Below, one piece after another: positions 9,496 to 63,939 of a stretch of 64,000 nt of DNA. Under the pieces are notes generated by a model. It ran no database searches. It was not told the DNA's origin and saw only the letters and a program-made list of their open reading frames with translations. The translations under genes were made by a program, and so were the position numbers. The stretch comes from a virus: the IMG/VR virus record IMGVR_UViG_3300034032_000013, positions 1-64,000 of that record, one strand, 5' to 3'. Each line of letters opens with the position of its first letter. Positions within the stretch are counted from its first letter, which is position 1.

Positions 9496-9897
9496 ATGAC
9501 GATAGAATGTAATGAAATACAACAAGTTGGAAATGAATTGCTAATAGCATTCCAAGATTGTAATAAAATAAAAAATAGTGATTTAAGAAAATTAGTAGAG
9601 TTAGTTCTTGCTGTAAGTACCTGTAATAATGGTGGTCCTGATTATAATACTTTAATAACTGAAGTATATGAACCAGTATCTGACCAAGTTATTACTTATG
9701 AACCTAATAGTTTCCATAGTGTTTCTATTATGGTATTAGCAGGTAATATTGAAGAAGAATCTAATTTAGGTACTGTTACATATCCAACAGGTACAGTTCT
9801 TAATACGGAATTTACAAATCTTAATCAAACAACTTTAACCTTCACTGTAGTTGCAGGAAGTCAAGTAGTTGTTAAATATTTAATAGAAACAGTATAA
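9496..9897 (+). CDS. hypothetical protein
   Basis: 133 aa ORF. Its stop overlaps the next start (TAATG). Confidence 0.6.
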   Translation: MTIECNEIQQVGNELLIAFQDCNKIKNSDLRKLVELVLAVSTCNNGGPDYNTLITEVYEPVSDQVITYEPNSFHSVSIMVLAGNIEEESNLGTVTYPTGTVLNTEFTNLNQTTLTFTVVAGSQVVVKYLIETV

Positions 9898-11249
9898 TGG
9901 CAAAAGTAAACGGTTCATTAGGTCAGACAGGACAATCTCAATCTGGAATTACTAATCAAGATAACTTTGATAAATTTAAATATATCATTGTACAAACTAC
10001 TGACATAAGTGAAGTTGTTGATATTATGAATAATCTTAATCCATATATAATTAATGATATTACCAACCCATTGTGGATTGTAGCTGTTAAGTATGGTATT
10101 AATAAAAATTCTACTCCAACCAAATATATTTATAAAGTAAGTAATTTAGGTAAAGGAACATATGGTTTAAATCAGACTCCACTTACACTTGGTAATATAG
10201 AATTAATTAGTGTATTAAATTTAACTGTAGAAAATGTTGAAATATTACCTAATACCCAAATATTTGATTTAGGTAATATTAATAATGTTAGTATTTCAGA
10301 TTATGTAAATACTTTAACACCATCAATAACCCTGCAATCTCAACTAATAGGATACAGATTGTTTAAAACAACTACAGGAGATTATTTATATATTTCTAAT
10401 GAGGGTACTTATGGACAGAATGATTTACAAACCGTAGATGAAGATTTTCAAATTTTATCAACAACTATAAATGTTAATTCTACATCAATATATCATCAGT
10501 CATTCACTTTTGAAGGTTCTTCAGATTTTAATTTAGATTTTCCTACAAATAATGTCATCTCTGTCAGTGTAAATGGTCAAACATTGAATCAAGTAGTTCC
10601 TGGACCAATTCAATATGAAATTAGTGAAGATATAATTCTTCATATATATGATACACTTGAATATGATGATATTATAACTATTACGTATAGTCACGTAATA
10701 ACAGATACTGAAGGATTTACAAAAGCAGAAATTATAGCTTTGATTAATCAAGCTTATAGACAAGAATTTACTTTAAGTTTCCCTAGAGTAAGAATTTCAA
10801 ATACTGGTGTTCCAGGAACATATCATATATTTTCACCTACTGCTGGAGATAGTGCTTTAAATATAACAACTAATATAGGTATTAGCGATACTAACTTAAT
10901 TGGTAATTATAATTTTGCAAGAAATCAAGTGGTAACGGTAGCACCATATGATTGTAGAGTAGACCATATTTACAGTCAACAAAATATATCAGGTGGTGCA
11001 TATTATGATATTGTAATATATAGAGGTACAAAACATCCTGATGAACCAATTAATTTTAGTTTTGTAAATAAAGTAAAGGTTGCACAAGTAAGTAGTGCAG
11101 ATGGTCAACAATCAATTTATCAAAATATTGCTGGTACAGAAACAATTAAAAAGGGTGATTTTATATTTATACTTTCTAAGTTAACTCATCCAACTCTTCC
11201 GAATACTATATCATTAGGTGGATTACATATAAGATTTAAACAAATATAA
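9897..11249 (+). CDS. tail fibre protein, paralogue 1
   Basis: 450 aa. The N-terminal ~190 aa is paralogous to the next gene (LGKGTYG..., NTQxxDLGxIxxxSIS, DFQ). The remainder is Asn/Thr/Ile-rich and beta-looking. Confidence 0.5.
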   Translation: MAKVNGSLGQTGQSQSGITNQDNFDKFKYIIVQTTDISEVVDIMNNLNPYIINDITNPLWIVAVKYGINKNSTPTKYIYKVSNLGKGTYGLNQTPLTLGNIELISVLNLTVENVEILPNTQIFDLGNINNVSISDYVNTLTPSITLQSQLIGYRLFKTTTGDYLYISNEGTYGQNDLQTVDEDFQILSTTINVNSTSIYHQSFTFEGSSDFNLDFPTNNVISVSVNGQTLNQVVPGPIQYEISEDIILHIYDTLEYDDIITITYSHVITDTEGFTKAEIIALINQAYRQEFTLSFPRVRISNTGVPGTYHIFSPTAGDSALNITTNIGISDTNLIGNYNFARNQVVTVAPYDCRVDHIYSQQNISGGAYYDIVIYRGTKHPDEPINFSFVNKVKVAQVSSADGQQSIYQNIAGTETIKKGDFIFILSKLTHPTLPNTISLGGLHIRFKQI

Positions 11250-13241
11250 ATGGATTCAACAATAAAAATAAAAGATGGTCAATTACAGAATCCTGGTGGT
11301 AATGGTAATGGTCAAACAATAATACAAGATAATAGATTTATATTAAAAAATATAGGTACTATTGATACTGATACACCTGTTAATGTTGCAGCTGCTATAA
11401 ATTCTTTACAATCATTTGTTGTAACTGAACACCAAATACCCATATTTAATTATACCAAGCGTATAGGAGAGAATACACAAGTAGTTGATGTAATATTATT
11501 AATGTTAGGTAAGGGTACATATGGTTCAGGTGGCACAGTTGTTACAGTAAATAATGTTAAAGTTATTTCACGTTATTATGCAACAACTTTAAACATTGAA
11601 GAATTAATAAATACTCAAAAAGTTGATTTAGGTGATATAGGTGCTTTATCAATATCACAACATATAAATGAAAATGATTCAATCTTTATTCAAGACCAAG
11701 CTGATGGATATGTAGTATTTAAAGCTATAATAAATGGATTAGAAAAGAGTTATCTATATTTAGGTCCTGGTGGAGATTTTGGTCTTGATGCAGATACAAT
11801 ACTTCAACAAGATTTTCAACCATTGTATGCTGAAATTGAACAAACTGAATTTGAAATTCCTTCTATTGATGAAGTAATATCTCAAGGTGGAAATACAACT
11901 TCTGGGTCAGTTAACTTTACATCAGGAAGTTCTAATGTTACTTTTAACAATGGATTGGGTTACACATCGGGAATGAACTCTGAAAGAGTTATTGTAAATA
12001 GAACAGATTTTGATGGAATTTATACTGTAATTATCAGAGGTAATAATATAGAGTTTAGTAAAGATGATGGTTCAGTATGTACATTTTATCCATCATTATA
12101 TGGTAATACCACAAATATATTTTTACCCGATGCAGATGGAACACTAGCTACTGAAGAATATGTAAATATAGCTATAGCCAGTAGTGGTGGCGGTGGAGGT
12201 GGTGGTGTAACCGAACAGCAGCTTGATGATGCTATTGACGGTGCAAATGCAACAGCGCAAGGTTACGCAAATACAGCGGAAAGCAACGCTATTGCTGCGG
12301 CTGCGGCTGCGTTGGCAGGGGATATAGAAGTAAATAACATTACAGCGGTAGGCAGTATTGATGCAGCTTCTGTGTCTGCAATTAATAACGTTATAGGTTC
12401 TAACATAACCGCAACCAACGCAACCGATATAGCCACTTTACAATCAGGTAAAGTTGACAAAGTTACAGGTAAAGGACTTTCAACAGAGGATTATACTACA
12501 GTAGATAAAGATAAAGTATCTCTATTATCAGGTACAAATTCAGGTAACGAAACAGCAACCACAATTGGTACACTTGTAAATGGTGCTACATCTAAAACAA
12601 CACCTGTTGATGCCGATATGATTCCTTTAATGGATTCAGCGGCTTCAAATATTATCAAGAAATTAAGTTGGGCGAATGTTAAAGCAACTCTGAAAACTTA
12701 CTTTGATACTCTTTACGCAACAGTAGCTGACTTAGCTAATTTAGAGAGATATTTTTATAGAAGTATAACACCTTCAACTATTACTGCTGGAACTACTACT
12801 CCTGGAACAGGTGATGTAGTAATGAGGTCTATAACAATTGCACCAAATACATTTGCAGTAGGTTCTTTATTGAAAGCTTCATTTAACGTAAGTAGAACAG
12901 CCAGCAATTTAGTTTATGCTGCTTATTATCTAACTACAACGCCTCCGACAGTAGGTTCATCACCGCCCGTAGGTTCAACACAAGTAGGAGGTTTTTATAC
13001 ATCAGGAGCTAGTGAACTTAGTTTTATATTTAGTAGAGTATTTGTTATAAAATCTGATGGTTTACACGTAAATAGAGTAGAAGGTACAGGTGCAGTAGAT
13101 AATGAAAGAGGTAGTACAATAGCTGCTCAAATCATTCCTTTTAATCCATCTACTACCTATTATCTTATGGAAATAATAAATAGAACTAATACTAGTAATG
13201 GTGTTGCAAGTGAAGCATCATTTGTAAAAGGAGTGAAATAA
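11250..13241 (+). CDS. tail fibre protein, paralogue 2 (mosaic, receptor-binding candidate)
   Basis: 663 aa with a shared N-terminal domain. It has a Gly7 linker and an Ala-rich coiled segment (ANATAQGYANTAESNAIAAAAAALAG). It also carries a KVDKVTGKGLSTEDYT motif of the kind common in phage fibres. Confidence 0.55.
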   Translation: MDSTIKIKDGQLQNPGGNGNGQTIIQDNRFILKNIGTIDTDTPVNVAAAINSLQSFVVTEHQIPIFNYTKRIGENTQVVDVILLMLGKGTYGSGGTVVTVNNVKVISRYYATTLNIEELINTQKVDLGDIGALSISQHINENDSIFIQDQADGYVVFKAIINGLEKSYLYLGPGGDFGLDADTILQQDFQPLYAEIEQTEFEIPSIDEVISQGGNTTSGSVNFTSGSSNVTFNNGLGYTSGMNSERVIVNRTDFDGIYTVIIRGNNIEFSKDDGSVCTFYPSLYGNTTNIFLPDADGTLATEEYVNIAIASSGGGGGGGVTEQQLDDAIDGANATAQGYANTAESNAIAAAAAALAGDIEVNNITAVGSIDAASVSAINNVIGSNITATNATDIATLQSGKVDKVTGKGLSTEDYTTVDKDKVSLLSGTNSGNETATTIGTLVNGATSKTTPVDADMIPLMDSAASNIIKKLSWANVKATLKTYFDTLYATVADLANLERYFYRSITPSTITAGTTTPGTGDVVMRSITIAPNTFAVGSLLKASFNVSRTASNLVYAAYYLTTTPPTVGSSPPVGSTQVGGFYTSGASELSFIFSRVFVIKSDGLHVNRVEGTGAVDNERGSTIAAQIIPFNPSTTYYLMEIINRTNTSNGVASEASFVKGVK

Positions 13242-47381: not shown

Positions 47382-47544
47382 TTACCGATTTATTGTATTT
47401 ATAGATTAACCATTCAATTTCGGATATTCTAGCATTTAATTCAACTATTTTTATATTATCATAAAATTTAGTGAATTTTGGTCGCATTGCAGTAGCTAAA
47501 TCTGATTTTAAATGGTTTAATCTATCGTTAAGTATCTTTTCCAT
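47371..47544 (-). CDS. small hypothetical protein (not in supplied ORF track)
   Basis: 57 aa: MEKILNDRLNHLKSDLATAMRPKFTKFYDNIKIVELNARISEIEWLIYKYNKSVNDK. Its ATG overlaps the upstream stop (TAATG at 47542-47546). Its 3' end overlaps the thyX start by 11 nt, filling an otherwise empty 160-nt gap. Confidence 0.5.
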   Translation of the reverse strand: MEKILNDRLNHLKSDLATAMRPKFTKFYDNIKIVELNARISEIEWLIYKYNKSVNDK

Positions 47545-47873
47545 TATTCATCTTGACTTTCTATTCTATCAATTATTGATGCCATTTTAAGTATAAGATA
47601 AATAACATTATCTCCAAATTTCTCATCTAATACTTTAATCGTTGGTAATTTACCTTCTACTAAATCATTAGTAATATCTGCAATAGATATTTCGTGTTTT
47701 AATAACATTCCATCCAATACTTTCTCACGTATTAACCCAGACTTCTGAGCACCTACATCAAAATTATGAAATGGATTATTATTACGTCTATATTCTTTTC
47801 CCTTTACAATAAGAGTTTCTCTAATCCCATTAAGGAATACATCTACTACTTCATCAAATCTCTTTTCTGTCAT
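47544..47873 (-). CDS. small helical protein, possibly MazG/DUF1599 (Nmad1)-like
   Basis: 109 aa. The segment KGKEYRRNNNPFHNF...LLKHEISIADI...VIYLILKMASIID has the feel of all-alpha NTP-pyrophosphatase-like domains. Unverified. Confidence 0.25.
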   Translation of the reverse strand: MTEKRFDEVVDVFLNGIRETLIVKGKEYRRNNNPFHNFDVGAQKSGLIREKVLDGMLLKHEISIADITNDLVEGKLPTIKVLDEKFGDNVIYLILKMASIIDRIESQDE

Positions 47874-48244
47874 TATTCTTTTGGTTTATAATGTTTATCA
47901 CATAGTACAGTAACCCATCCATCATTTCTAACTTTACCAGGTTCTCCACATTCTTCACAAGTGTGGTAAGAAAGTTCTTCATACTTATCGACTATCAATC
48001 TTTGTTCTTGAGTTAATCCATTAGTATAAAATCTTAATCCACCAAACTTTTCTTTAACTTGAGTAATATGCTTATCCCAACCAGCTTGTATTAATTCTTC
48101 AATTAAATCTTTTACTAGTTGATACCAACCTTTACCTATACTAAAAAATCCAGCAGACTTAATAGGTGGTTTGTTTGTAAACATACCATTCTCTAATCCA
48201 CCAATACTTTCAAGATATTCTTCAAATTCTTTTTCTGTTACCAT
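47873..48244 (-). CDS. hypothetical protein with C-terminal zinc-ribbon-like Cys/His cluster
   Basis: 123 aa with HTCEECGEPG...LCDKH. Confidence 0.5.
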   Translation of the reverse strand: MVTEKEFEEYLESIGGLENGMFTNKPPIKSAGFFSIGKGWYQLVKDLIEELIQAGWDKHITQVKEKFGGLRFYTNGLTQEQRLIVDKYEELSYHTCEECGEPGKVRNDGWVTVLCDKHYKPKE

Positions 48245-48888
48245 ATTATAGGTTCTTTAAGTAATTGATTAACTTTATTAAAGCAATCATTACAATTCCA
48301 CGTTCCACCTCTATAAACTGCTGCAACTGGATGTTCAGCTGTTATAACTTCACTATTATGTATATAAGGTAATAATGTTTGAGCATCTTTTCCCCATAAT
48401 AGAAATATAACACCACCTTTCTTATCCAATTTTTCAATAGTTCTTCGAGTAAATATTTCCCAACCCTTACCTTTATGACTATTACTAACACCTTTGTCAA
48501 CGGTTAGTACATTATTAAGTAACATCACACCTTGGTCAACCCATCTAGTAAGATTATTATTCCAAAATGGATGTATAGTACCACCATAAACAGTCTTAGC
48601 AATTGCTTTTTCAATTTGTCTAAGACTTGGTGTATAACTACCATCCTCTACTGAAAATGATAATCCGTGAGCCTGATTAGGTTTAATATAAGGGTCTTGA
48701 CCTACTATACAAACTTTAACATTTGAATATGGTGTTGAACGATATGCATTAAATATATTATGAGCTTCAGGATATATAGTAGTTTCTAACCTTCTTTGTT
48801 TAACAAAGTTATTTAAATCTTCCATATATTGCTTACCAAACTCATCTTTCATTAACTCATACCATTCTTCACCTAATAATTCTTTCAT
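48238..48888 (-). CDS. ung: uracil-DNA glycosylase, family 1
   Basis: VGQDPY (catalytic Asp), AHGLSFSV, TPSLRQI, MLLNNVLTV, NSHKGKGWEIFT, FLLWGKDAQ and a C-terminal EHPVAA His motif are all present, in canonical order. Confidence 0.85.
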   Translation of the reverse strand: MKELLGEEWYELMKDEFGKQYMEDLNNFVKQRRLETTIYPEAHNIFNAYRSTPYSNVKVCIVGQDPYIKPNQAHGLSFSVEDGSYTPSLRQIEKAIAKTVYGGTIHPFWNNNLTRWVDQGVMLLNNVLTVDKGVSNSHKGKGWEIFTRRTIEKLDKKGGVIFLLWGKDAQTLLPYIHNSEVITAEHPVAAVYRGGTWNCNDCFNKVNQLLKEPIIW

Positions 48889-49175
48889 TATATTTGTCCT
48901 TTATATTTTCCAGATTTAAAATATTCTGCAAATTTACCTAATTTGTAAGTAACTCTAGCTTTCACATCATCTTTAGAAAACAATTCTTCTAATACTTTTA
49001 GGCGTATCTTAACATCACCAATTTCATCAGTTACTTCTTTTAAATTAACTTTATTAGGTTTATTAACTAATTGTATAAGTACTAATGAAAGTTCATTAAG
49101 CTCTTCTGCTGCTTTTAAAAGGTTATAAGTATAATCATTAGTTTCAGCTAATTTATTTATAATCTCTTTATCCAT
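48888..49175 (-). CDS. MazG-like nucleotide pyrophosphohydrolase
   Basis: 95 aa with an EExxE ... ExxD arrangement (AAEELNEL ... TDEIGDV). Confidence 0.45.
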   Translation of the reverse strand: MDKEIINKLAETNDYTYNLLKAAEELNELSLVLIQLVNKPNKVNLKEVTDEIGDVKIRLKVLEELFSKDDVKARVTYKLGKFAEYFKSGKYKGQI

Positions 49176-54420: not shown

Positions 54421-54988
54421 ACTCTTCTATTTTAAATGTTTCATATTCTTGTTCAACATACTCTCCAAGTTCCTGATTTACATCAAGAACAACTTTATGC
54501 TCTTTTGAACTAAGTTCCTTTTCAATTTTTTCTTTTAATTTTGGTGATTTGTATAATATATCTTTTACTTTTTGTAAAAAAGGAATACCTAGTGTATTTC
54601 CTGAATAAACTTGACCCCAGAAATCTAATATCAATTGTTTAGCGTCTTCTCCAAATTTGGAATATTGGCTATTGTAAAGATATGCGTATTCATTTAGGTA
54701 TTCTTCAGGAAATCTAAAGATGTATATTACCTTGTTATCCAAATCTATATGCTTAACAAACAATGGGTTATTAGTTAACTTATGTTCGTAAGCAGTAAAA
54801 TCTGGATTCTTAAATGAAAATTCGTGCAATATATAAAAACAATTCTGCAATTCAGGGTCTTCCCCAAACATATAAGTATTGATTAAATATGGCATAAACT
54901 TTATATCAAGAGATAGCACCTGAGCTATCAACGGTAATAAATAAGTCTTTGACTTATTATATCTAGGTTTCATTATTTTATCACTCAT
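54401..54988 (-). CDS. hypothetical protein
   Basis: 195 aa ORF, overlapping its neighbours at both ends. Confidence 0.6.
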   Translation of the reverse strand: MSDKIMKPRYNKSKTYLLPLIAQVLSLDIKFMPYLINTYMFGEDPELQNCFYILHEFSFKNPDFTAYEHKLTNNPLFVKHIDLDNKVIYIFRFPEEYLNEYAYLYNSQYSKFGEDAKQLILDFWGQVYSGNTLGIPFLQKVKDILYKSPKLKEKIEKELSSKEHKVVLDVNQELGEYVEQEYETFKIEEFVKSKV

Positions 54989-56031
54989 TAATTTACTTCT
55001 ATAAAATCATCATTTAAAATTACGTTACCATTATTTTCATAAATTTCTTTATCAAATTCATAACGTTTGTTTTTCCAGTGATAATATATTAGGTCAAGAT
55101 TTTCATCTAACCCTTTATATTTATAACCAGAAATCGTTTTAAATCCCCTCAAAGCTGCATTATGCCACTTTTCACTTATTTCAAATACGTGTGGTACTTT
55201 TTCAAATCTACCAATAAATATAAATTTAAATGGTGCTAGAGTGTAATTCTCTAATTTAAGTAATCTACATATTTCTCCAAAAGCTAAAGTGTAAACACAT
55301 TCTTGGAAATCATAACGATATTTCAGAAAGCTCTTAGTGAATTCGCAAGCTTTACTTGAACCCGTTTTAATATCCTCTATATATACCATTTTAGTATCGT
55401 GGTCTATAGAAAGTTTATCAATTAATCCTCTCAATGTAAAGTTTTTGTATTCAAAACTAAAAGGAAATTGATAATGATTCTCAAAATTATTATTAAATAA
55501 ATGTGATGTGTGTTTATGATTCAATAAAGTATTCACACAATCAAGAGCATCATCATAATCTTTTTGGTCTACTACCAATTTGTTTTTTGTTTCAAATCGA
55601 ATTTTAAGATAATTATGCAATTCAGGAACATCAAATTTCCCTAGTAAAACGTCTTCTTTTTTAACGTTACTCCAAAACTCGTTATGTTTAACTATTTTTA
55701 ACATAGTTTGAACATCTGGTATTGTATCATAATTTTCTATAATTATATCTGCTAATTGTCCTAACATTGCTTTAGGTTTATTATCATCATATAATACATA
55801 ATTCTCTTTAAAAATTGTACTTCCTGTAAGTCTGTCTACAAGCATATCATCAGTCAATGACCCAAAACGTAATCCTTCACCATCAACCAAAATTCTTTTG
55901 ACTAATGCTTTAGGTCCATTTCTATCAAAATCTGAGATTCTTGAATAAGAAAGTTTTAAATCAATTTCTTCTTCATCACTAAGCAATCTTTCTAGTTTGC
56001 TCATCATTTCTTTCTCCTCTTTCATCCGCAA
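54988..56031 (-). CDS. PD-(D/E)XK nuclease (RecB/Cas4-like exonuclease)
   Basis: GLIDKLS ... VYIEDIKTGS (D ... ExK) followed by YRYDFQECVY (the QxxxY element). Confidence 0.6.
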   Translation of the reverse strand: MRMKEEKEMMSKLERLLSDEEEIDLKLSYSRISDFDRNGPKALVKRILVDGEGLRFGSLTDDMLVDRLTGSTIFKENYVLYDDNKPKAMLGQLADIIIENYDTIPDVQTMLKIVKHNEFWSNVKKEDVLLGKFDVPELHNYLKIRFETKNKLVVDQKDYDDALDCVNTLLNHKHTSHLFNNNFENHYQFPFSFEYKNFTLRGLIDKLSIDHDTKMVYIEDIKTGSSKACEFTKSFLKYRYDFQECVYTLAFGEICRLLKLENYTLAPFKFIFIGRFEKVPHVFEISEKWHNAALRGFKTISGYKYKGLDENLDLIYYHWKNKRYEFDKEIYENNGNVILNDDFIEVN

Positions 56032-56254
56032 TTATTAGTTCGATTACCTCGTCTACTAATTCATTAGCTTCTTTATATGGGGAAAGTTTTATATCATAAG
56101 CCATATCTTCCATTTGTTCAATAAGCTTCTCTAGAAATAATCTAGCAGAATTATATTCTTTAAAGTTGATATATCTCTTAAATGTGATATAATCCTTTTC
56201 CTCAAATATAAATTTAGCTAAATTAATTATTTTTCGTAATCTTTTAATGTTCAT
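55979..56254 (-). CDS. hypothetical protein
   Basis: 91 aa. Ends in TAG followed directly by TGA. Overlaps the nuclease gene by up to 53 nt. Confidence 0.5.
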   Translation of the reverse strand: MNIKRLRKIINLAKFIFEEKDYITFKRYINFKEYNSARLFLEKLIEQMEDMAYDIKLSPYKEANELVDEVIELIIADERGERNDEQTRKIA

Positions 56255-56267
56255 TTTAATTTTTATA

Positions 56268-56711
56268 TTAATCTATCTTAATATATACACCAGGATTCTC
56301 CTTGTCTATACTATACGCTTTCCCATCTATAATTAGAGGATAAGGTAAAAAGAATCTCATATTATCATCTTCAATAATATTATGAGCAACCATTAAATCT
56401 GCTAATATTTGATTAGCATTATTAAAGTCAAAATCGTGTTTTGATTTTCTTACGAAGTGAAAGCCTATTTTAAAAGGTTCTTTTTTACCTTCCATTGCTT
56501 TTTCAAACTGTACTCGTAATTTCTCAAATTCATTTTCTCTTTTTACATAACCTTTAACTTCTTTTTTGGATGAAGAATAACTTTGAATACCAAGCTTACC
56601 GAGATATGCTTTAACTGTTTTAGAGCTAAATATACCTCGGCTTGTCTTGATTTTACTATTCTTCAATGAAGGTACATTATATGGAATCCATATTAATCCC
56701 TCTTCTACCAT
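56268..56711 (-). CDS. RusA-like Holliday junction resolvase
   Basis: 147 aa with an N-terminal VPSLKNSK and DFDFNNANQILADLMVAHNIIEDDN. These resemble the RusA PxSxN and DxDN...D..DD acidic motifs. Confidence 0.4.
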   Translation of the reverse strand: MVEEGLIWIPYNVPSLKNSKIKTSRGIFSSKTVKAYLGKLGIQSYSSSKKEVKGYVKRENEFEKLRVQFEKAMEGKKEPFKIGFHFVRKSKHDFDFNNANQILADLMVAHNIIEDDNMRFFLPYPLIIDGKAYSIDKENPGVYIKID

Positions 56712-57406
56712 TCTATTAATTCTTTATGGTAATGATGAACATACTTATCTAAATCATAAAATATTCTTGAGTCTTTTGGTAAAACAATTTCGTCGTTTGA
56801 AAAGATTTTATGTTTCTTTTCATCTATAAATTGCTTATAATAATTACAAGTATTATCAAGAAATACAAAAGCAATATTTTGATGTGTAAGATTAATATGT
56901 TTTATCACAAACCTTGTGAAATGAGCCCAACATTTATGGTGAGAATTATGAAATTCTGATGTTAGACTCGTATTTAACATTAAACAACCTTGTTCCGCCC
57001 AACTTTCTAAAGTATAATCAAATGTTTTCTTATTATCCTGATACTTATAAGTAGTATTTTCAACACACGTTTTAATGTTATTAAGAGCAGGTGGTATCAT
57101 TATAGTATCTTCTGCTACTCCATATGCCAGTCCATTAGACTTCAAATTAGAATAAGGTTGTTTACCTATAAATATTACCTTTAATTCATCATATTTACAC
57201 ATACGAAATGCCCTGAATACATCATCTTTATCACAAGGATAAATCTGTTCAGGAGATGCATATTTTTGATTTATAAACCACGCTAAATTATCCATATAAC
57301 GTTGAATTATAATCTGTATCAAAGGTTGTGCCCAAGTACCTAGTTCATCGCTGTAATTAACCTTTAAACCAGTCTTATCTATTGGATTGATGTGTTCTAC
57401 TACCAT
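56705..57406 (-). CDS. degenerate UDG-fold protein (catalytic residues lost)
   Basis: Collinear with family-1 UDG: IGKQPY (vs GQDPY, Asp to Gln), NGLAYGV, PPALNNI, MLNTSLT, NSHHKCWAHFT, FVFLDNT. It lacks the C-terminal HPSP-type His motif. TAATG overlap with the amidoligase gene. Ends in TAG. Confidence 0.6.
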   Translation of the reverse strand: MVVEHINPIDKTGLKVNYSDELGTWAQPLIQIIIQRYMDNLAWFINQKYASPEQIYPCDKDDVFRAFRMCKYDELKVIFIGKQPYSNLKSNGLAYGVAEDTIMIPPALNNIKTCVENTTYKYQDNKKTFDYTLESWAEQGCLMLNTSLTSEFHNSHHKCWAHFTRFVIKHINLTHQNIAFVFLDNTCNYYKQFIDEKKHKIFSNDEIVLPKDSRIFYDLDKYVHHYHKELIEW

Positions 57407-59256
57407 TATACCATTTCCTCATTAGATTCTTTAATAGGGTCAACAAATTCTAAATCTTGTTTGATAGCATTTGCTTTCGATTGATTATGTAAATGTAACA
57501 TAGCATCATCAAGCATTTGTTTTGATAAATTTACATATGATTTAGAATTTGAATAAGTAGAATTATATATCATATTTTTATGTGCACCTTCATCCATTTT
57601 ATCTGTCCAAACTTTTGTTACAAGTTCTACTTCGGCAATTGGATTAATAGTTATAGGCGCAGATATATAATCATCTTCCTGCATAGATACTTTAGGAGCA
57701 GATTGTTTTGCACGTTTTATCTCTTTTAAATTTATAGGAATATGAATATCCCTTTTATTAAAATCAAGATATTTTGAAACACGAATATGCTCCTCTTTAC
57801 CGATAATATCTCCTCTACAATTATTAGATTCAGTCACCTGTTTCCTAACACTTAAATAGTCATCCATACACATAATTATACTATCTCTATTGGATACATT
57901 GGAAGTATTTAAATACTCTGTAATAATACGACGTAAATCTTTACCATATAAAAAATTCTTGTTTTCAAGAATATTTTTCTGATACTTTTTAGTAAAGTTA
58001 ACCAAGATTGCTGACATTAATATAAATGGAACAATTTTATTTACCTCATAAGTTGGAGTATGTATTCTAAATTCAACAGTTGTTTTGTTACCAAATATCA
58101 ACGGAATTAAATTATGAATGTAATACCTTGTATGAATATTCCACTTTTGATTGTTATTTGGGTCAGAAGGGTGAACTTTTACTTTATCTAAATCATTATT
58201 ATATGCAGCAAAAGGTTGTCCTTGTGATAAATATTCAAATAAAACATTAAAGTTTTCATTAATATTTTCACGAGTAATTATAGCATCCATTCTACTTAAT
58301 AAATCAAATATAGGATATGGTTTAGAATAATTTTTATTCTTAACTTTAAAATTATATTTTTTATATAAAGGAAACATTTGATACATATCATCTTGTACAA
58401 GACAAGTTAATTTAAAAAATGCAAGAATGAATTCTTTTGTTCTAGGAACATTTCCAATATGTAAGTGTAAAGAACAAGTATTATCATAAACAGTTCGTTC
58501 CTTTAAAGGTTCCAACATATCGACTACTGTTTGTAACCCTTTTTCTCCTGAAAGTGGTATAGTTACATATTCTATACCACTTATACTTCCATCTCGTAAA
58601 GGTATTAATCCCACTTTGTTCAAAATTCTATCAGGAATAAATCCTCTAGTAGTTTCAAACTCCAAACCAAAAGATACATCTTCTAAAATTGGAGCATAGG
58701 TTTTAACAACATTACTTATTCTACTTTCATAAAATTTATTATACTTCTCTGTAAAAGCATCAGTAATCCCTCTTGAGTCATAAGGTAGAGATGTTTTATA
58801 CTCTTGTGAAGGTATAATTATTTTATTAAAAGCATTTGCAGGCAATCTTTTAATGTGATAGTATATACCTGATGATAGTTCTTCACGATATTCTCTATTA
58901 TTTTCCAACAATTTCTCGTCTAAAATATAATAGTGTTCACCATTTTCTAAACCTATTTCAGCTTTACCTTCCGCATCAAAATGCCCAAAAATAGGTTGAT
59001 TATTTTCAAAACCAACAATACCATTTACTAGGTTATTTTTATTCATTGTATATTCTTTTGTACTGTGGTTAAAAACGATATTACCAGTTTCGGCTCGATA
59101 ACAACTTTTATTAATAATGTAACAATCTCCTGAATTCTCTTCATTGGTATTACCTATTTTGTAATATCCTGTTGGAAATTTTCTACATTGTGATATTGGT
59201 AATTTCTCGCCTTTAATAGTAATTACTTCTTTTTGCTTACTCATTTTCTTTTTCAT
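57406..59256 (-). CDS. amidoligase (glutamine-synthetase-fold COOH-NH2 ligase, Amidoligase_2-like)
   Basis: 616 aa. Core: FGLEFETTRG ... DGSISGIEYVTIPLSG ... CSLHLHIGN. Confidence 0.65.
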   Translation of the reverse strand: MKKKMSKQKEVITIKGEKLPISQCRKFPTGYYKIGNTNEENSGDCYIINKSCYRAETGNIVFNHSTKEYTMNKNNLVNGIVGFENNQPIFGHFDAEGKAEIGLENGEHYYILDEKLLENNREYREELSSGIYYHIKRLPANAFNKIIIPSQEYKTSLPYDSRGITDAFTEKYNKFYESRISNVVKTYAPILEDVSFGLEFETTRGFIPDRILNKVGLIPLRDGSISGIEYVTIPLSGEKGLQTVVDMLEPLKERTVYDNTCSLHLHIGNVPRTKEFILAFFKLTCLVQDDMYQMFPLYKKYNFKVKNKNYSKPYPIFDLLSRMDAIITRENINENFNVLFEYLSQGQPFAAYNNDLDKVKVHPSDPNNNQKWNIHTRYYIHNLIPLIFGNKTTVEFRIHTPTYEVNKIVPFILMSAILVNFTKKYQKNILENKNFLYGKDLRRIITEYLNTSNVSNRDSIIMCMDDYLSVRKQVTESNNCRGDIIGKEEHIRVSKYLDFNKRDIHIPINLKEIKRAKQSAPKVSMQEDDYISAPITINPIAEVELVTKVWTDKMDEGAHKNMIYNSTYSNSKSYVNLSKQMLDDAMLHLHNQSKANAIKQDLEFVDPIKESNEEMV

Positions 59257-61186
59257 TTGACACTATGAATGTGCTTAAAATTCCGTTAATGTTATCTATT
59301 GTTTTGATAAATTCTTTTGCTATAGAATTTGGCAGATAACCTTCAAGATTTTTCTTAGTTTGATTTAAACTTACAATTGGTTCAGTCAATTCTTCATTAA
59401 TTAAGTTACTAACGATTTCGTCTTCTTCTTTACCTTTCATTTCTAAGTCATCACCAGTATAATCATCTTTAAAATCTTCTTGGTCTTCTTCAACCTTTTT
59501 CATAAAAATAGCATCTGATTGTTCCATAATAGCTGCTGTTTGAGCCTCTTCGTGAGCAAATAAACTTTTCTCTACTCCTTCAAGTACATCTTTTTTAAAA
59601 GGTACGATAGCAACATCTTTAACATCTTCTTTTTTAGACATTGAAATAGGAAGTTGAATAACATCTTTAACAGGGTTTTTAACATCTAATTGAATGTCAA
59701 CACGAGTTCTCATATTTACTAAATTACCCTTACTAAATTCATATACTCTTTCAGAACCTAACGGACAGATATTACCTGTATATAACTTACCATCAAAGTA
59801 AACCTTTTGGTCAGTCATAGGTTCCATTGTCATAGGTGGTACAGGATGTTTAGCTACAATAGATAAATCAATATGATTAAGATACTTTTGATTTTTGTCT
59901 AAAGTTGCTAATCTTTGTTTCATTACATTATAATCATAAACAGTTCTGAGCATTACACCTTGTATAAAATAACAAAGCATTGGTACCTGATGTAATTTAA
60001 ATGGTATAAAATCTGTTGCAGGTTCTACTGTACGATTTCTATGAAATTCTCCATTGATAAATGGTACTCCTGTATATGATTTAATATCTTTTAAAGCCTC
60101 ATCTCTAGTTTGACCCATAGAATGAAAACCGTAACCAGGAATATAAACATATACACCCGTAATAACGTGCCCATTCCTTTTGTATCTTCCTTGATTATAA
60201 TAGGGTTTTCCTTGTCGTAATGGAAGTGGGATGAAGAGGTCTTCTGTGTGAATGTTAACGGTTGATGACATTCCTGAAGTTCTTCTACTGGGATATACCT
60301 CACTAATATCAGATGTCTTAGTACCATAAGTTACAGTATTATGTCTGATATTATTAACATTTATAGGTGATGTATAAGATACATTTTTACTAACATAAGG
60401 TACATTCTGCCAAGTATTTCTTCTACTTACTAAAAGTTTAGTGGCATTTTTAAAATCACCATCTGTTATACAATATACTGTATTATTATCAATTTGAAAA
60501 GCTTGTGTTTCATCAGCTCCTAAAGCATAAAGACTTTCTATCATTGAAGAAAAGAATGTTGAATTTTTACTTCTTTGATATACGCATAAGGGTCTTTCAA
60601 TAGTCATATTAATACTCGTGTCCCAATCTTTTGAAGCACCTGAAAATAGATAAATCTTATTAGGTTCTTCTAACCAAGTCCAAGCTAAAGCTGCACCACC
60701 GATGTATTTACTTAGTACTGTATAATTTTTTTCTTTATACATAATTTCCAGTAATATTTCACTATCTATTTTCTTACGAACATATTTAATGTTATTACTG
60801 AAATATTCTTCTTCAATATCGATATTGTACATTTTAGCAAGCTCTTCATAATTTTTAAGAGTACCATTATGGCAACCAATAAATTCATAGTTACCATTAT
60901 CTAAAGCACCGAAACCAAAAGGATGAGCGTTAAAAGCATTTATTGCACCTACACTAGATTGTCTTGTATGACCAAATATAGTAGGTACACTCTTCGGCTT
61001 AATGTGCCGCTTTTTTATAAAATCACTATATAGCTTATCTTTATCAAGACCTAAATATATTTCACCATCATATGTTAATCCGCAAGAGCTTTTACCTCTT
61101 TCGATATTAAATAGACCTAATATATTCATTTCACCAACTGATAAGCTATTTACATTTTTTGTTACGTGTCCAAAAATTCCGCACAT
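59237..61186 (-). CDS. class II (Ntn) glutamine amidotransferase domain protein with long C-terminal extension
   Basis: The N-terminus MCGIFG (Cys2 nucleophile) is followed by ERGKSSCG, GHTRQSS, AHPF and CHNGTLKNY, as in PurF/AsnB/GlmS GAT-II domains. About 400 aa of unknown sequence and an acidic tail follow. Confidence 0.7.
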   Translation of the reverse strand: MCGIFGHVTKNVNSLSVGEMNILGLFNIERGKSSCGLTYDGEIYLGLDKDKLYSDFIKKRHIKPKSVPTIFGHTRQSSVGAINAFNAHPFGFGALDNGNYEFIGCHNGTLKNYEELAKMYNIDIEEEYFSNNIKYVRKKIDSEILLEIMYKEKNYTVLSKYIGGAALAWTWLEEPNKIYLFSGASKDWDTSINMTIERPLCVYQRSKNSTFFSSMIESLYALGADETQAFQIDNNTVYCITDGDFKNATKLLVSRRNTWQNVPYVSKNVSYTSPINVNNIRHNTVTYGTKTSDISEVYPSRRTSGMSSTVNIHTEDLFIPLPLRQGKPYYNQGRYKRNGHVITGVYVYIPGYGFHSMGQTRDEALKDIKSYTGVPFINGEFHRNRTVEPATDFIPFKLHQVPMLCYFIQGVMLRTVYDYNVMKQRLATLDKNQKYLNHIDLSIVAKHPVPPMTMEPMTDQKVYFDGKLYTGNICPLGSERVYEFSKGNLVNMRTRVDIQLDVKNPVKDVIQLPISMSKKEDVKDVAIVPFKKDVLEGVEKSLFAHEEAQTAAIMEQSDAIFMKKVEEDQEDFKDDYTGDDLEMKGKEEDEIVSNLINEELTEPIVSLNQTKKNLEGYLPNSIAKEFIKTIDNINGILSTFIVSNEKENE

Positions 61187-61210
61187 TTATTTTTATATTT
61201 TTAATTATTT

Positions 61211-62029
61211 TTAAGCCACTTGTAGTGAATATTCACCAATTTTCTCTAATAATTCTATTGCTAAAGATTTATTATTTTCGTTAATTGCTTTAACAATCTG
61301 TTCAGAATATTTATCACTTAATTCATCAACCAATCCTGAATTTACAAGATTAATTGCTTCATAAGTAGTATTCCAAGCCCAAGCTATTAGTTCGTCTGTT
61401 GCAATCCAGAAATTTGATGGTGTACGATACTCCATACCATATGGTTTAAATCTGAAACAACCAGCTTTACCATACAACTCTTTACGTCTATCATCTTTAT
61501 CTAATGCTAAAGACTTCAAGCCTACAGTCATATCCATCGCTTTAACTAATCGTTCCACTGTTTCATCAGCTTCTTCCATAGTCATTTCAGATTTATCAAA
61601 CCCAATATGAATATGACCACCTGCACTTCGCATATTACTTTCAGCATTTGGTGGTTCATTCATACCTTGAGTATAAACATTAAAATCAGGGTCACACCCA
61701 AATTCTTTAGCTTTATCAGAATCCAATTCTTTTTCAGCTAATATAGCAGATGCTGAATAATTAGGTTTACAACCCATTGCAGCAGTGATAATAGTCAAAT
61801 GGTTTTTTACGAAATTGATACTTTCAGTAAATTCTTCAACTGTTTTAGCAGGTGGAATACAAAATTCCATTAACACATTATCTTCTTGGATAGCGTGTCC
61901 TTTTTCACTAATAGGTTTTGGTTCATCTTTACTACCACCAATTAGACCAATTGCTGATACAATTTCTCCATCTCTTTCTAAGAACAATTCTGGGTCACAA
62001 CCAAGTGTGATATTATTAATTTTTTTCAT
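61211..62029 (-). CDS. phage-type COOH-NH2 ligase (type 2, GCS2/glutamine-synthetase fold)
   Basis: 272 aa: GCDPELFL ... QEDNVLMEFCIPP ... AGGHIHIGF ... YRTPSN. It resembles the phiEco32-like amidoligase family, recalled from memory. Confidence 0.5.
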   Translation of the reverse strand: MKKINNITLGCDPELFLERDGEIVSAIGLIGGSKDEPKPISEKGHAIQEDNVLMEFCIPPAKTVEEFTESINFVKNHLTIITAAMGCKPNYSASAILAEKELDSDKAKEFGCDPDFNVYTQGMNEPPNAESNMRSAGGHIHIGFDKSEMTMEEADETVERLVKAMDMTVGLKSLALDKDDRRKELYGKAGCFRFKPYGMEYRTPSNFWIATDELIAWAWNTTYEAINLVNSGLVDELSDKYSEQIVKAINENNKSLAIELLEKIGEYSLQVA

Positions 62030-62047
62030 TTTTTATAATTTTTAAAT

Positions 62048-63067
62048 TTAACCTTTTTTTTTAATTAATACTTCTGGGGTTTTATAAGTGTTTTGTGAAA
62101 ATGGATTTTTACTTTCAATGAAAGGTTTAATAGGTAATGGTTTACTTCTGTTATAACTCTCTTCCTTTTTAGGTGGAATTGAAATTGTTTTAAACAAATA
62201 CATATCCATTAATTTAAAACACCACTGTTTAGTTTTTTCAGGACAATGATTATACTCAGGATGTCCTTGAATACACAAAGAATTTGATTCAGGATAATAA
62301 ATAATCTCAGGTTCTAGGAAATCTTTAGGTAAATCAAATTCTTCATCATTACCATTTAAATATTTAGTACTCTGAAAATATTGACTATGTGCAACTAATT
62401 CAAAGCGATGATCTGGTAAATTAAAAGGGAACATCATTTGATGATGCGTTGATGTAATTTCATATACCTGTCCTGAACCAACGTGTGTAATTTTATGATT
62501 ACCACTATGATTATTTACATCTTGAATCATTTTACCACCGTTCATAACAGTTAAAAATTGACCACCACGACAGATACCTAGTTTAGGCATATCAAATGGT
62601 AATTTTTCATATATCATCATTTCATAATCATCTCTTCTAGAATTAACACCAGTCCAAGAACCTCTTTTATCTCCATATAATGCAGGATTGACATCTTCAC
62701 CACCTGTAAATAGAACTAAATCTACTTCTTGTGATAATCTTTTAGTATTGTCACCTAAGATATTATGATTTACTACAGTTACATCAAAACGAGTATTAAG
62801 ATAATCTACATATTCGTGTGATTTAGTATTATCTGCAATTAAAATTCGTAAAGGTCTTTTTTCAACAATTTCCTGTTCTATTTTATCTTCCCGACGTTCA
62901 AAATATTCAATTAGAAACAGTGCTTTTTCAATTGAACCATGACCTGGAATATTTTGATATACTAATCCTGGCATTCCAACTACATATTTCGATAACAAAT
63001 CAGGATTATTAAGTATATTTTGAGGAAAAACATGATTATCTAAGTAATTTATTACTTCTTTTTTCAT
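62048..63067 (-). CDS. class I glutamine amidotransferase / peptidase C26 (gamma-glutamyl hydrolase-like)
   Basis: LFTGGEDVNPALYG, LGICRGGQFL (nucleophile Cys), STHHQM and IQGHPEY (His-Glu of the triad). Confidence 0.75.
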   Translation of the reverse strand: MKKEVINYLDNHVFPQNILNNPDLLSKYVVGMPGLVYQNIPGHGSIEKALFLIEYFERREDKIEQEIVEKRPLRILIADNTKSHEYVDYLNTRFDVTVVNHNILGDNTKRLSQEVDLVLFTGGEDVNPALYGDKRGSWTGVNSRRDDYEMMIYEKLPFDMPKLGICRGGQFLTVMNGGKMIQDVNNHSGNHKITHVGSGQVYEITSTHHQMMFPFNLPDHRFELVAHSQYFQSTKYLNGNDEEFDLPKDFLEPEIIYYPESNSLCIQGHPEYNHCPEKTKQWCFKLMDMYLFKTISIPPKKEESYNRSKPLPIKPFIESKNPFSQNTYKTPEVLIKKKG

Positions 63068-63939
63068 TATAAATTTGCTTTTTTATTAATTAATTTTGGA
63101 ATCATTTCAATATATTTTCTTGCACATACACTTAGTTCACCTGTTCCATTATCCATAGAACTGGCACTATTACATTCAAGAAGTATATAATCCTGATATT
63201 CCCTTTTCTTACCTTTACCATCAACTGGTGATTGTACTTTAACATCAAAACTAAGTACATCTGCACCTACAGATTTTAAAGCTTTAACACAATCTTTCTC
63301 AATATCACTCCAACTATTAGGTTTGAAGAAAGATTCATTTTCTTCTAAGAACCATACACAAGTTGAATCGTGAAAATGCCATTTTTCTTCTTCAGGTGTA
63401 TCTTTACGTAATGCTTTTCTACAAGCATAAAAACAACCATCTTCAGTAATATGAAGTCTAAACTCGTGAGCATAGTTCATAAACTTTTCAAAGATATAGT
63501 TAGCTAAGGTTTTATCAACTTTCCAAGCATCCAATTCAGCTTGAGATTTAATTAAAGTATTACCTTTACCTTTACTACCATAATGAGCTTTTGCTACAAT
63601 AGGGAATTGAAGTTGCCCACCTTCCATTTTAGCAGCTAATTCAGCTTCAAAGTTTGCTCCACCTTGAACCCATATAGCAGTTCTAACACCTGATGCCTCG
63701 AAACAACGTTTCATAAGTAGTTTATTTGCTGAATTCTTTACAGCTTGTACTGTATTAATCTCAACACGTCTACCACCATTAGCAATAGTATCCTGAACTT
63801 CAGTAGTGCTGCCAAATCTGACAACACTACGAATTTTAGATAATGGTAAGTTCTTAGAACTAAACTTTAAACAATTATGTGATGGATGTCTTGAAACAAC
63901 CATTGGTCTGAACATTGTAATTTGTTTTTTAACTGCCAT
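63067..63939 (-). CDS. ATP-grasp ligase (RimK-like)
   Basis: FPIVAKAHYGSKGKGNTLI, EKFMNYAHEFRLHI and the terminal ILLECNSASSM element are in ATP-grasp order. TAATG overlap with the next gene. Confidence 0.6.
   Translation of the reverse strand: MAVKKQITMFRPMVVSRHPSHNCLKFSSKNLPLSKIRSVVRFGSTTEVQDTIANGGRRVEINTVQAVKNSANKLLMKRCFEASGVRTAIWVQGGANFEAELAAKMEGGQLQFPIVAKAHYGSKGKGNTLIKSQAELDAWKVDKTLANYIFEKFMNYAHEFRLHITEDGCFYACRKALRKDTPEEEKWHFHDSTCVWFLEENESFFKPNSWSDIEKDCVKALKSVGADVLSFDVKVQSPVDGKGKKREYQDYILLECNSASSMDNGTGELSVCARKYIEMIPKLINKKANL

Follow-up and report, generated by a model that had tools for sequence, protein, structure and literature searches.

A catalytically dead uracil-DNA glycosylase (UDG) of Epstein-Barr virus (EBV), the viral UNG, fully restores viral replication, and the UNGs of vaccinia virus and human cytomegalovirus (HCMV) are needed for replication (PMC5934625). 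Among phages, an inactive UDG domain forms part of N4-like polymerases, and docking on phage polymerases has been predicted for UDGs encoded in trans (PMC13697223). Here we describe UDG2, the second UDG-like gene in a 64,000-nucleotide stretch of phage DNA (positions 1 to 64,000 of IMG/VR virus record IMGVR_UViG_3300034032_000013; hereafter the window), which also encodes a canonical UDG, here UDG1. UDG2 directly follows an amidoligase gene, in a gene position that we will refer to as the slot. The source genome is complete (104,241 bp, with direct terminal repeats), and its nearest described relatives are crAss-like Steigviridae, namely Cellulophaga phage phi14:2 and gut phage cr108_1. Our reading, to which we assign a probability of roughly 0.55 and which leans on analogy with known viral UNGs, is that UDG2 is a selected pseudo-glycosylase with a non-catalytic role associated with DNA or the replisome.

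That UDG2 is a member of the family-1 UDG fold family is beyond doubt, since sequence and predicted structure agree. The open reading frame (ORF) is real, and all of the motifs quoted for it in a first-pass annotation of the window are found in it (GKQPY, NGLAYGV, PPALNNI, MLNTSLT, NSHHKCWAHFT and FVFLDNT). It matches solved family-1 Ung proteins in the PDB with an E value of 1.7e-21 (phmmer), and NCBIfam Ung models match it at E 1e-32 to 1e-35, with scores that stay below the Ung equivalog cut-offs (113 bits vs 185.75 and 122.2 vs 162 for TIGR00628 and NF003592). The Pfam UDG model is likewise sub-threshold (17.9 bits, cut-off 24.3), and PHROG 12143 takes in both UDG1 and UDG2. An AlphaFold2 model of UDG2 built on 124 relatives has a mean predicted local distance difference test (pLDDT) score of 96.6 and superimposes on E. 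coli Ung with a template modelling (TM) score of 0.80 and a root-mean-square deviation of 2.3 Å over 222 columns (Foldseek, prob 1.00). Profile or structure comparison had been set as a check on whether the protein belongs to the UDG superfamily at all, and by both Ung homology and fold UDG2 falls inside it.

Within this fold the catalytic motifs are gone, as had been claimed: alignments to solved Ung structures put Gln83 in place of the water-activating Asp and show no His in the catalytic-His column. We compared UDG2 and the degenerate clade to which it belongs, column by column, with 62 canonical relatives. The catalytic-Asp column holds Asp in 62/62 canonical relatives and mostly Glu (48%), Gln (15%) or Arg (7%) in the degenerate clade, and the Gln that adjoins the catalytic Asp in canonical Ung is Lys82 in UDG2. 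The match to solved Ung ends at about residue 203, ahead of the HPSPLS loop, and in the model the C-terminal part consists of beta4 (residues 200-203), a loop and a helix (residues 215-227). In the catalytic-His column, which is His in 100% of canonical relatives, UDG2 has Glu206 and the clade has Gly (44%), Asn (22%) or Glu (7%) together with a two-residue gap; the shortened loop has no conserved His nearby, and the wedge Leu is also gone. Elsewhere, the Ser of the Pro-rich loop has become Ala107 (PPS to PPA), and the Trp-Gly of the Gly-Ser loop, in which Gly is present in 62/62 canonical relatives, has become Leu183-Asp184. The pocket Asn is kept, in 96% of the degenerate clade and 98% of canonical relatives, as are the stacking aromatic residue (Tyr95 in UDG2) and the hydrophobic core. 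The columns of an N-terminal hairpin are gaps in 95% of canonical relatives, and the hallmarks of the degenerate clade are Arg165 (100%), Arg or Lys at 161, Phe182 and His5 (78%). Loss of the Asp, of the His/Leu loop and of the Ser and Gly-Ser pinching loops supports the view that UDG2 would be without canonical glycosylase chemistry.

The relatives of UDG2 are so divergent that a word-indexed homologue search, and pattern scans for UDG2 only or the amidoligase only, recovered the query alone; HMMER had to be run exhaustively over 1.84 billion representatives, which gave 6,620 hits. A metagenome scan with the degenerate-clade alignment returned generic UDGs only. Nearly all of the closest relatives (35-42% identity) are without the Asp and without the His loop. 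The clade that contains UDG2 is without both Asp and His in 27 of 28 members of a FastTree phylogeny (support 95) and in all 21 of those sampled for an IQ-TREE mixture-model phylogeny (SH-aLRT, an approximate likelihood ratio test, 99). Motif A is hypervariable in the UDG2 subclade (GKQPY, GLRPT, GNQPF, SNNAP, NSAAP, NEKPH, DNSPS, TNVHT and SNQFF), and the former active-site loop is therefore no longer constrained.

Catalytic losses look multiple in the UDG tree. A subfamily of slot UDGs with the His kept (L098:9125-9874, which is P0046; L224-L227, L247, P0030, P0070 and P0129) pairs an Asp-to-Glu change (GxEPY) with an Asn-to-Asp change in the residue that recognises uracil (LLD[AS]xST); its loop is of the form HPxDA. 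These sequences look like a case of altered base specificity, not inactivation; in human UNG, an Asn-to-Asp mutation confers the ability to excise cytosine. UDG-like proteins without Asp and/or His also occur in another phage lineage, in which the exonuclease gene precedes the UDG and no amidoligase cassette lies within 10 kb (L040, L051 and L064, with GKQPH or GQKPH and DDPxxY; L044, L047 and L024), and close relatives of these are canonical (L018, L034-L036 and L089). With degenerate copies in this second lineage, loss of UDG catalysis in phages is recurrent.

We estimated the ratio of nonsynonymous to synonymous substitution rates (dN/dS; Nei-Gojobori method, NG86) in a subclade of nine related phages. 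The dead UDG-like gene has a median dN/dS of 0.40 (range 0.25-0.80), close to the values for the amidoligase (0.42) and Ntn-GATase protein (0.40) genes; medians are 0.31 for the ATP-grasp gene, 0.23 for the COOH-NH2 ligase gene, 0.20 for the exonuclease gene and 0.17 for a 195-aa ORF. In dozens of clusters with <50% identity to one another, the degenerate UDG ORFs have stayed intact. These data show purifying selection, of moderate constraint, keeping what by its residues is a predicted pseudo-glycosylase.

Judging from gene order, the position of UDG2 is an ancestral backbone slot, in the series primase, variable cassette, UDG, RusA-like resolvase, PD-(D/E)XK exonuclease. The order cassette, UDG, RusA-like gene, small ORF, exonuclease gene is found in both phi14:2 and cr108_1, as well as in all metagenomic contigs of sufficient length. 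Canonical UDGs occupy the slot beside the amidoligase cassette in cr108_1 and in contigs L010, L058, L241, L243, L262 and L265, and the slot also holds canonical UDGs in phages without that cassette: cr85_1 has a primase gene, a ThiF/metalloprotease cassette, a canonical UDG, a resolvase gene and an exonuclease gene, and in Flavobacterium phage FpV4 a canonical UDG lies directly 3' of the primase gene. At or beside the variable position these two phages carry genes for a ThiF-like E1, a metalloprotease-domain protein and hypothetical proteins (L013:4367-7992 in cr85_1, L102:9772-14874 in FpV4). The junction between primase and UDG genes has the look of a hotspot at which conjugation-type enzyme cassettes are exchanged. 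Given a conserved junction and the tight packing of phage genes, a stop/start overlap between the amidoligase gene and UDG2 is expected. Their adjacency would thus reflect backbone synteny and need not mean a partnership with the ligases.

We surveyed 79 IMG/VR loci anchored on the amidoligase gene and scored the gene that follows it. This slot gene is a canonical UDG at four loci and a non-canonical UDG-like gene at 49; among the latter, 32 encode neither Asp nor His, eight Glu and no His, five Glu plus His, and four another residue plus His. It is absent from about 22 loci and undeterminable at three. At 21 of the loci without a slot gene the RusA gene starts within ~120 nt of the amidoligase stop. 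At L254 (7437-8372), amidoligase stop and RusA start are separated by 935 nt, in which the sole ORF has 82 aa and a UDG remnant is not detectable; the slot gene may have been erased here recently. Since about 22 of 79 cassette loci are without a UDG-like gene, the cassette does not need a UDG-like protein. The non-canonical share is 49/53 among cassette-bearing slot genes vs ~11/80 among other viral UDG loci (n=80 from a UDG pattern scan, ~69 of them canonical), a difference uncorrected for shared ancestry. Anchoring on the exonuclease or RusA gene to reach cassette-free crAss-like phages gave either alignments that were too divergent or cassette-bearing genomes only.

A UDG1-query search of 49 cassette-bearing genomes found a single UDG-like gene in 33 and no such gene in the other 16, with two in no genome; a dead slot gene therefore needs no live UDG elsewhere, and the two-UDG state of the window phage is unusual. 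We had considered the idea that another, canonical UDG must compensate for a dead slot gene, which fits the window and contig L186 and fails in the 49 genomes and in phi14:2. A link to polymerase type (dead with PolB, canonical with PolA) was hinted at by seven genomes and rejected on 50.

The first-pass annotation had proposed that the degenerate gene is specifically coupled to the ligases. In that form this is not borne out: canonical UDGs stand beside the cassette, about 22 of the 79 cassette loci are without a UDG-like gene, and cr85_1 and FpV4 have a slot UDG and no cassette. It had also named occurrence in related phages independent of the ligase genes as grounds for dropping the idea, and such copies exist, including degenerate ones with no cassette within 10 kb. 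A UDG-like protein is thus no obligate part of the cassette, with exceptions in both directions (cassette without UDG-like gene, slot UDG without cassette).

UDG1 is a canonical UDG as annotated, with both GQDPY and HPVAA, and clears the NCBIfam Ung equivalog cut-offs that UDG2 does not (191-208 bits; 207.9 vs a cut-off of 162). The description of UDG2 as its paralogue stands as far as homology goes (30% identity over 142 aa, E 2e-15) and fails if it is taken to mean a duplicate of UDG1, since the two fall in separate clades: UDG1 groups with HPSPL-type, cellular-like Ungs (SH-aLRT 99), and a tree forcing UDG1 and UDG2 together is 61.7 log-likelihood units worse (approximately unbiased (AU) test, p 0.017, for a group named after the tree had been seen). 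On this phylogenetic evidence UDG1 is separate in origin and no recent duplicate of UDG2. One other contig has the two-UDG layout, namely L186, whose canonical copy likewise lies between helicase and ThyX genes. Identity between the window and L186 is 61% for the canonical copies and 30% for the dead copies, so that UDG1 is evolving about half as fast. The surroundings of UDG1 are kept in order in both (window 47544-49175, L186:17064-18875), with helicase, a 94/95-aa ORF, UDG1, a small ORF and ThyX, and UDG1 is therefore part of a nucleotide-sanitation block and not a lone insertion.

UDG2 is embedded in a replication module of Sak4, primase, cassette, UDG2, RusA, exonuclease, dUTPase, ribonucleotide reductase (RNR) and helicase genes (Table 1). 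The overlap of the amidoligase stop with the UDG2 start as TAATG, reported earlier, is present at 57404..57408 (-). UDG2 is not the last cistron, as had been thought, since the RusA-like gene starts inside the UDG2 stop (ATGGTAG) and the array runs on: the same-strand genes 3' of UDG2 are the RusA-like gene, a 91-aa ORF, the exonuclease gene, the 195-aa ORF, dUTPase and RNR, with gaps of <=25 nt. A consensus scan found no minus-strand terminator-like sites from ~54.5 to 64 kb and promoter-like counts equal the shuffled expectation; with both at chance level, no operon boundary can be placed.

Table 1. Features of the UDG2 locus and of UDG1, in window coordinates
Feature	Position	Strand	Basis
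UDG1, canonical family-1 uracil-DNA glycosylase, between helicase and ThyX genes	48238..48888	(-)	GQDPY, HPVAA
PD-(D/E)XK exonuclease	54988-56031	(-)	domain hits
91-aa ORF	55979-56254	(-)	conserved downstream neighbour of UDG2
RusA-like resolvase	56268-56711	(-)	domain hits
ATGGTAG, RusA-like start codon overlapping UDG2 stop codon	56705..56711	(-)	sequence
UDG2, family-1 UDG-fold protein, 233 aa	56705..57406	(-)	ORF, Ung homology, AlphaFold2, Foldseek
UDG2 residues 204-214, short loop in place of the HPSPLS His/Leu-intercalation loop	56765..56797	(-)	alignments and model
UDG2 Asn145 codon, the uracil-recognising Asn of Ung (end of beta2), kept	56972..56974	(-)	alignment
UDG2 G81-K82-Q83-P84-Y85 codons, former water-activating loop (GQDPY in Ung)	57152..57166	(-)	sequence and alignments
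UDG2 residues 1-20, clade-specific N-terminal beta-hairpin extension (MVVxH...)	57347..57406	(-)	alignment and model
Amidoligase cassette, in-window part: ATP-grasp, C26-type GATase, COOH-NH2 ligase, Ntn-GATase protein, Amidoligase_2	57406..63939	(-)	Pfam, PHROG

Past the end of the window (L104:43-3730; genome 63.9-67.6 kb) the cassette goes on; next come a 258-aa ORF, another C26-type GATase gene and two genes for GGACT, a gamma-glutamyl cyclotransferase-like protein; a DnaG-type primase gene and Sak4 lie upstream of both GGACT genes. The cassette thus has about nine genes in all and spans the distance from primase to UDG slot. The top NCBIfam match of the 339-aa C26-type GATase (62048-63067) is gamma-glutamyl-CDP-amidate hydrolase NF045546, at 37 bits and far sub-cut-off, a weak indication that a nucleotide gamma-glutamyl amide could be among the compounds handled by the cassette. 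The complete 104-kb genome has no match to the thymidine-hypermodification markers HMUDK (5-hmdU kinase) and aGPT-Pplase3 (PF18723, PF18746), the latter being the one of three aGPT-Pplase families that the search covered, and defence-system models (PADLOC) gave no match. Prediction of a complex between the amidoligase and UDG2 scored 0.40, 0.00 and 0.00 in three runs and gives no verdict either way. A DNA search of a phage collection with 10 kb of the window found no match. The PolB-type DNA polymerase is a single 673-aa ORF in this genome (75.6-77.7 kb); in phi14:2 (NC_021806) it is split into two parts (9639-10577 and 10999-12078) that lie ~420 nt apart and have 61-64% identity each, and the split may reflect an intron or other insertion.

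We propose that UDG2 descended from the slot uracil-DNA glycosylase of crAss-like and related Bacteroidota phages. In this lineage the slot gene would have lost the water-activating Asp, the loop with the catalytic His and Leu, and the Ser-Pro and Gly-Ser loops; it would have kept the fold, core residues and pocket Asn, and gained the N-terminal beta-hairpin with its His and the invariant Arg. By analogy with the herpesvirus and poxvirus UNGs, its role would be a non-catalytic one in DNA metabolism, most likely binding DNA or the phage replication machinery, and uracil excision would be left to the separately acquired UDG1 and/or to the host. Several observations weigh against this proposal. 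The lost loops are the DNA contacts of canonical UNGs, and UDG2 could bind DNA only in some new way. In 11 related contigs the slot gene ranks among the most divergent syntenic genes, and such fast evolution fits a weak or accessory function over that of a core replisome subunit. The slot gene is dispensable, since UDG-free genomes include ones estimated to be 93-100% complete. Among 50 genomes, PolA-positive ones have canonical, dead and absent slot genes, and canonical slot genes are also found in PolA-negative ones. Finally, many sequences of the sister subclade have Glu where the Asp used to be, and some clade members could have altered or residual chemistry.

Such chemistry leads to the idea that UDG2 is still a glycosylase or other nucleic-acid enzyme, re-wired so that His5 or Arg165 stands in for the Asp or His. 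UDGs of other families, such as MUG and families 4 and 5, do without the Asp of family 1, and in UDG2 the clade-specific His5, the invariant Arg165 and the retained Asn145 speak for this idea, as does the His-keeping subfamily in the same slot with its paired Asp-to-Glu and Asn-to-Asp changes, which resemble a specificity shift. We nevertheless consider a re-wired enzyme unlikely: motif A, including the pocket-shaping Tyr, is hypervariable in the UDG2 subclade, unlike an active site, and nothing is left of the Leu wedge or of any of the three pinching loops that contain Ser. Ranked next, and rather unlikely, is a functionless, decaying relic on its way to deletion. The missing catalytic residues, the fastest evolution among neighbouring genes and the frequency of complete loss in related phages would all suit a relic, and so would the 49 related genomes, 0 of which have a compensating second UDG and 16 of which have no UDG match at all. 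Phage genomes, however, normally purge dead genes quickly. A dN/dS of ~0.4 and not 1, full-length intact frames across a deep and diverse clade, a fold predicted at very high confidence and an N-terminal extension with new residues gained and then conserved together disfavour a neutral relic.

Two further ideas involve the cassette. UDG2 could be a partner of the cassette enzymes: as a base- or nucleotide-binding scaffold it would offer the ligases a pyrimidine or gamma-glutamylated nucleotide, or else shield their product, with glycosylase loss selected because of that product. All ten non-canonical slot genes with enough upstream sequence directly follow Amidoligase_2, usually with a stop/start overlap; the slot gene is canonical at 4/53 cassette loci vs ~69/80 other viral UDG loci; and the pocket Asn and stacking aromatic residue are kept. 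We regard such a partner as doubtful, and place it below the relic, since the cassette also occurs with canonical UDGs and, at ~22/79 loci, without any UDG, degenerate UDG-like genes exist with no cassette nearby, HMUDK and aGPT-Pplase3 are unmatched in the genome, and the enrichment is uncorrected for shared ancestry. Retention of a canonical UDG and a dUTPase also argues against a uracil-derived DNA chemistry to which an active UDG would be damaging. The broader claim, that the dead slot UDGs form a new functional family in which loss was repeatedly driven by the amidoligase/GATase/GGACT cassette and the UDG fold now binds its product, is more doubtful still; as an example, a pyrimidine nucleotide or DNA base might be the target of, or be mimicked by, a gamma-glutamyl product of the cassette, which would then be bound uncut. 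The first-pass annotation also suggested a decoy for UDG-directed host functions; the idea that UDG2 titrates such factors, or UDG inhibitors, is very improbable. The overall UDG shape and the active-type UDG1 in the same genome are compatible with it. However, Ugi, p56 and SAUGI occupy the DNA groove and clasp the Leu loop, and by comparison with inhibitor-complex structures, notably those of Ugi, both features would be gone in UDG2; in addition, an active UDG that could be protected is lacking from most relatives whose slot gene is dead, and there was no PADLOC match.

The reading of UDG2 as a selected pseudo-glycosylase bears on how its relatives are annotated. The phi14:2 g042 and cr108_1 gp035 products and their kin are entered in databases simply as uracil-DNA glycosylase, and our literature searches turned up no account of dead family-1 UDGs, either in crAss-like phages or next to amidoligase cassettes. 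Annotation as an active repair enzyme needs correcting across a large environmental branch of crAss-like phages, phi14:2 g042 being one example, for there the slot gene is usually catalytically stripped or missing, yet is still under selection. The slot offers a natural series, from canonical through partly changed and dead to deleted, in which to study a repair enzyme becoming a pseudoenzyme, and phi14:2 is culturable, which makes the UDG question testable. That dead copies are so enriched next to the amidoligase cassette gives a rare handle on the function of this widespread cassette; cassette-driven loss, if true, would tie a phage cassette unexplained since 2009 to nucleic-acid chemistry. 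A non-catalytic role for UDG2 would extend the herpesvirus and poxvirus idea of a second, non-catalytic UNG job to bacteriophages and to family-1 UDGs acting in trans.

Compared with family-1 Ung (E. coli Ung, 1EUG and 2UUG; human UNG, 1AKZ), UDG2 has the fold, sequence homology, pocket Asn, aromatic residue and core in common and differs in the Gln for Asp, the deleted His/Leu loop, the replaced pinching-loop residues and the extra N-terminal hairpin. The nearest described genes, phi14:2 g042 and cr108_1 gp035, occupy the same slot (cassette, UDG, RusA-like, exonuclease) at ~28-33% identity to UDG2; cr108_1 gp035 is fully canonical (GQDPY, HPAYF), unlike UDG2, and phi14:2 g042 is intermediate, with GKEPY, EDPIQA and a full-length C-terminus. 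EBV BKRF3, HCMV UL114 and vaccinia D4 (mpox E4) resemble UDG2 in being UDGs within the replication gene set of a double-stranded DNA virus, but they keep the full catalytic motifs and are active, whereas UDG2 has lost its motifs in nature and its gene is dispensable in many relatives. The UDG domain of the N4-like family-A DNA polymerases is, like UDG2, a naturally degenerate UDG fold in phage replication machinery; that domain is of family-4 type and fused in cis, whereas UDG2 is of family 1, is encoded in trans and has no association with polymerase type.

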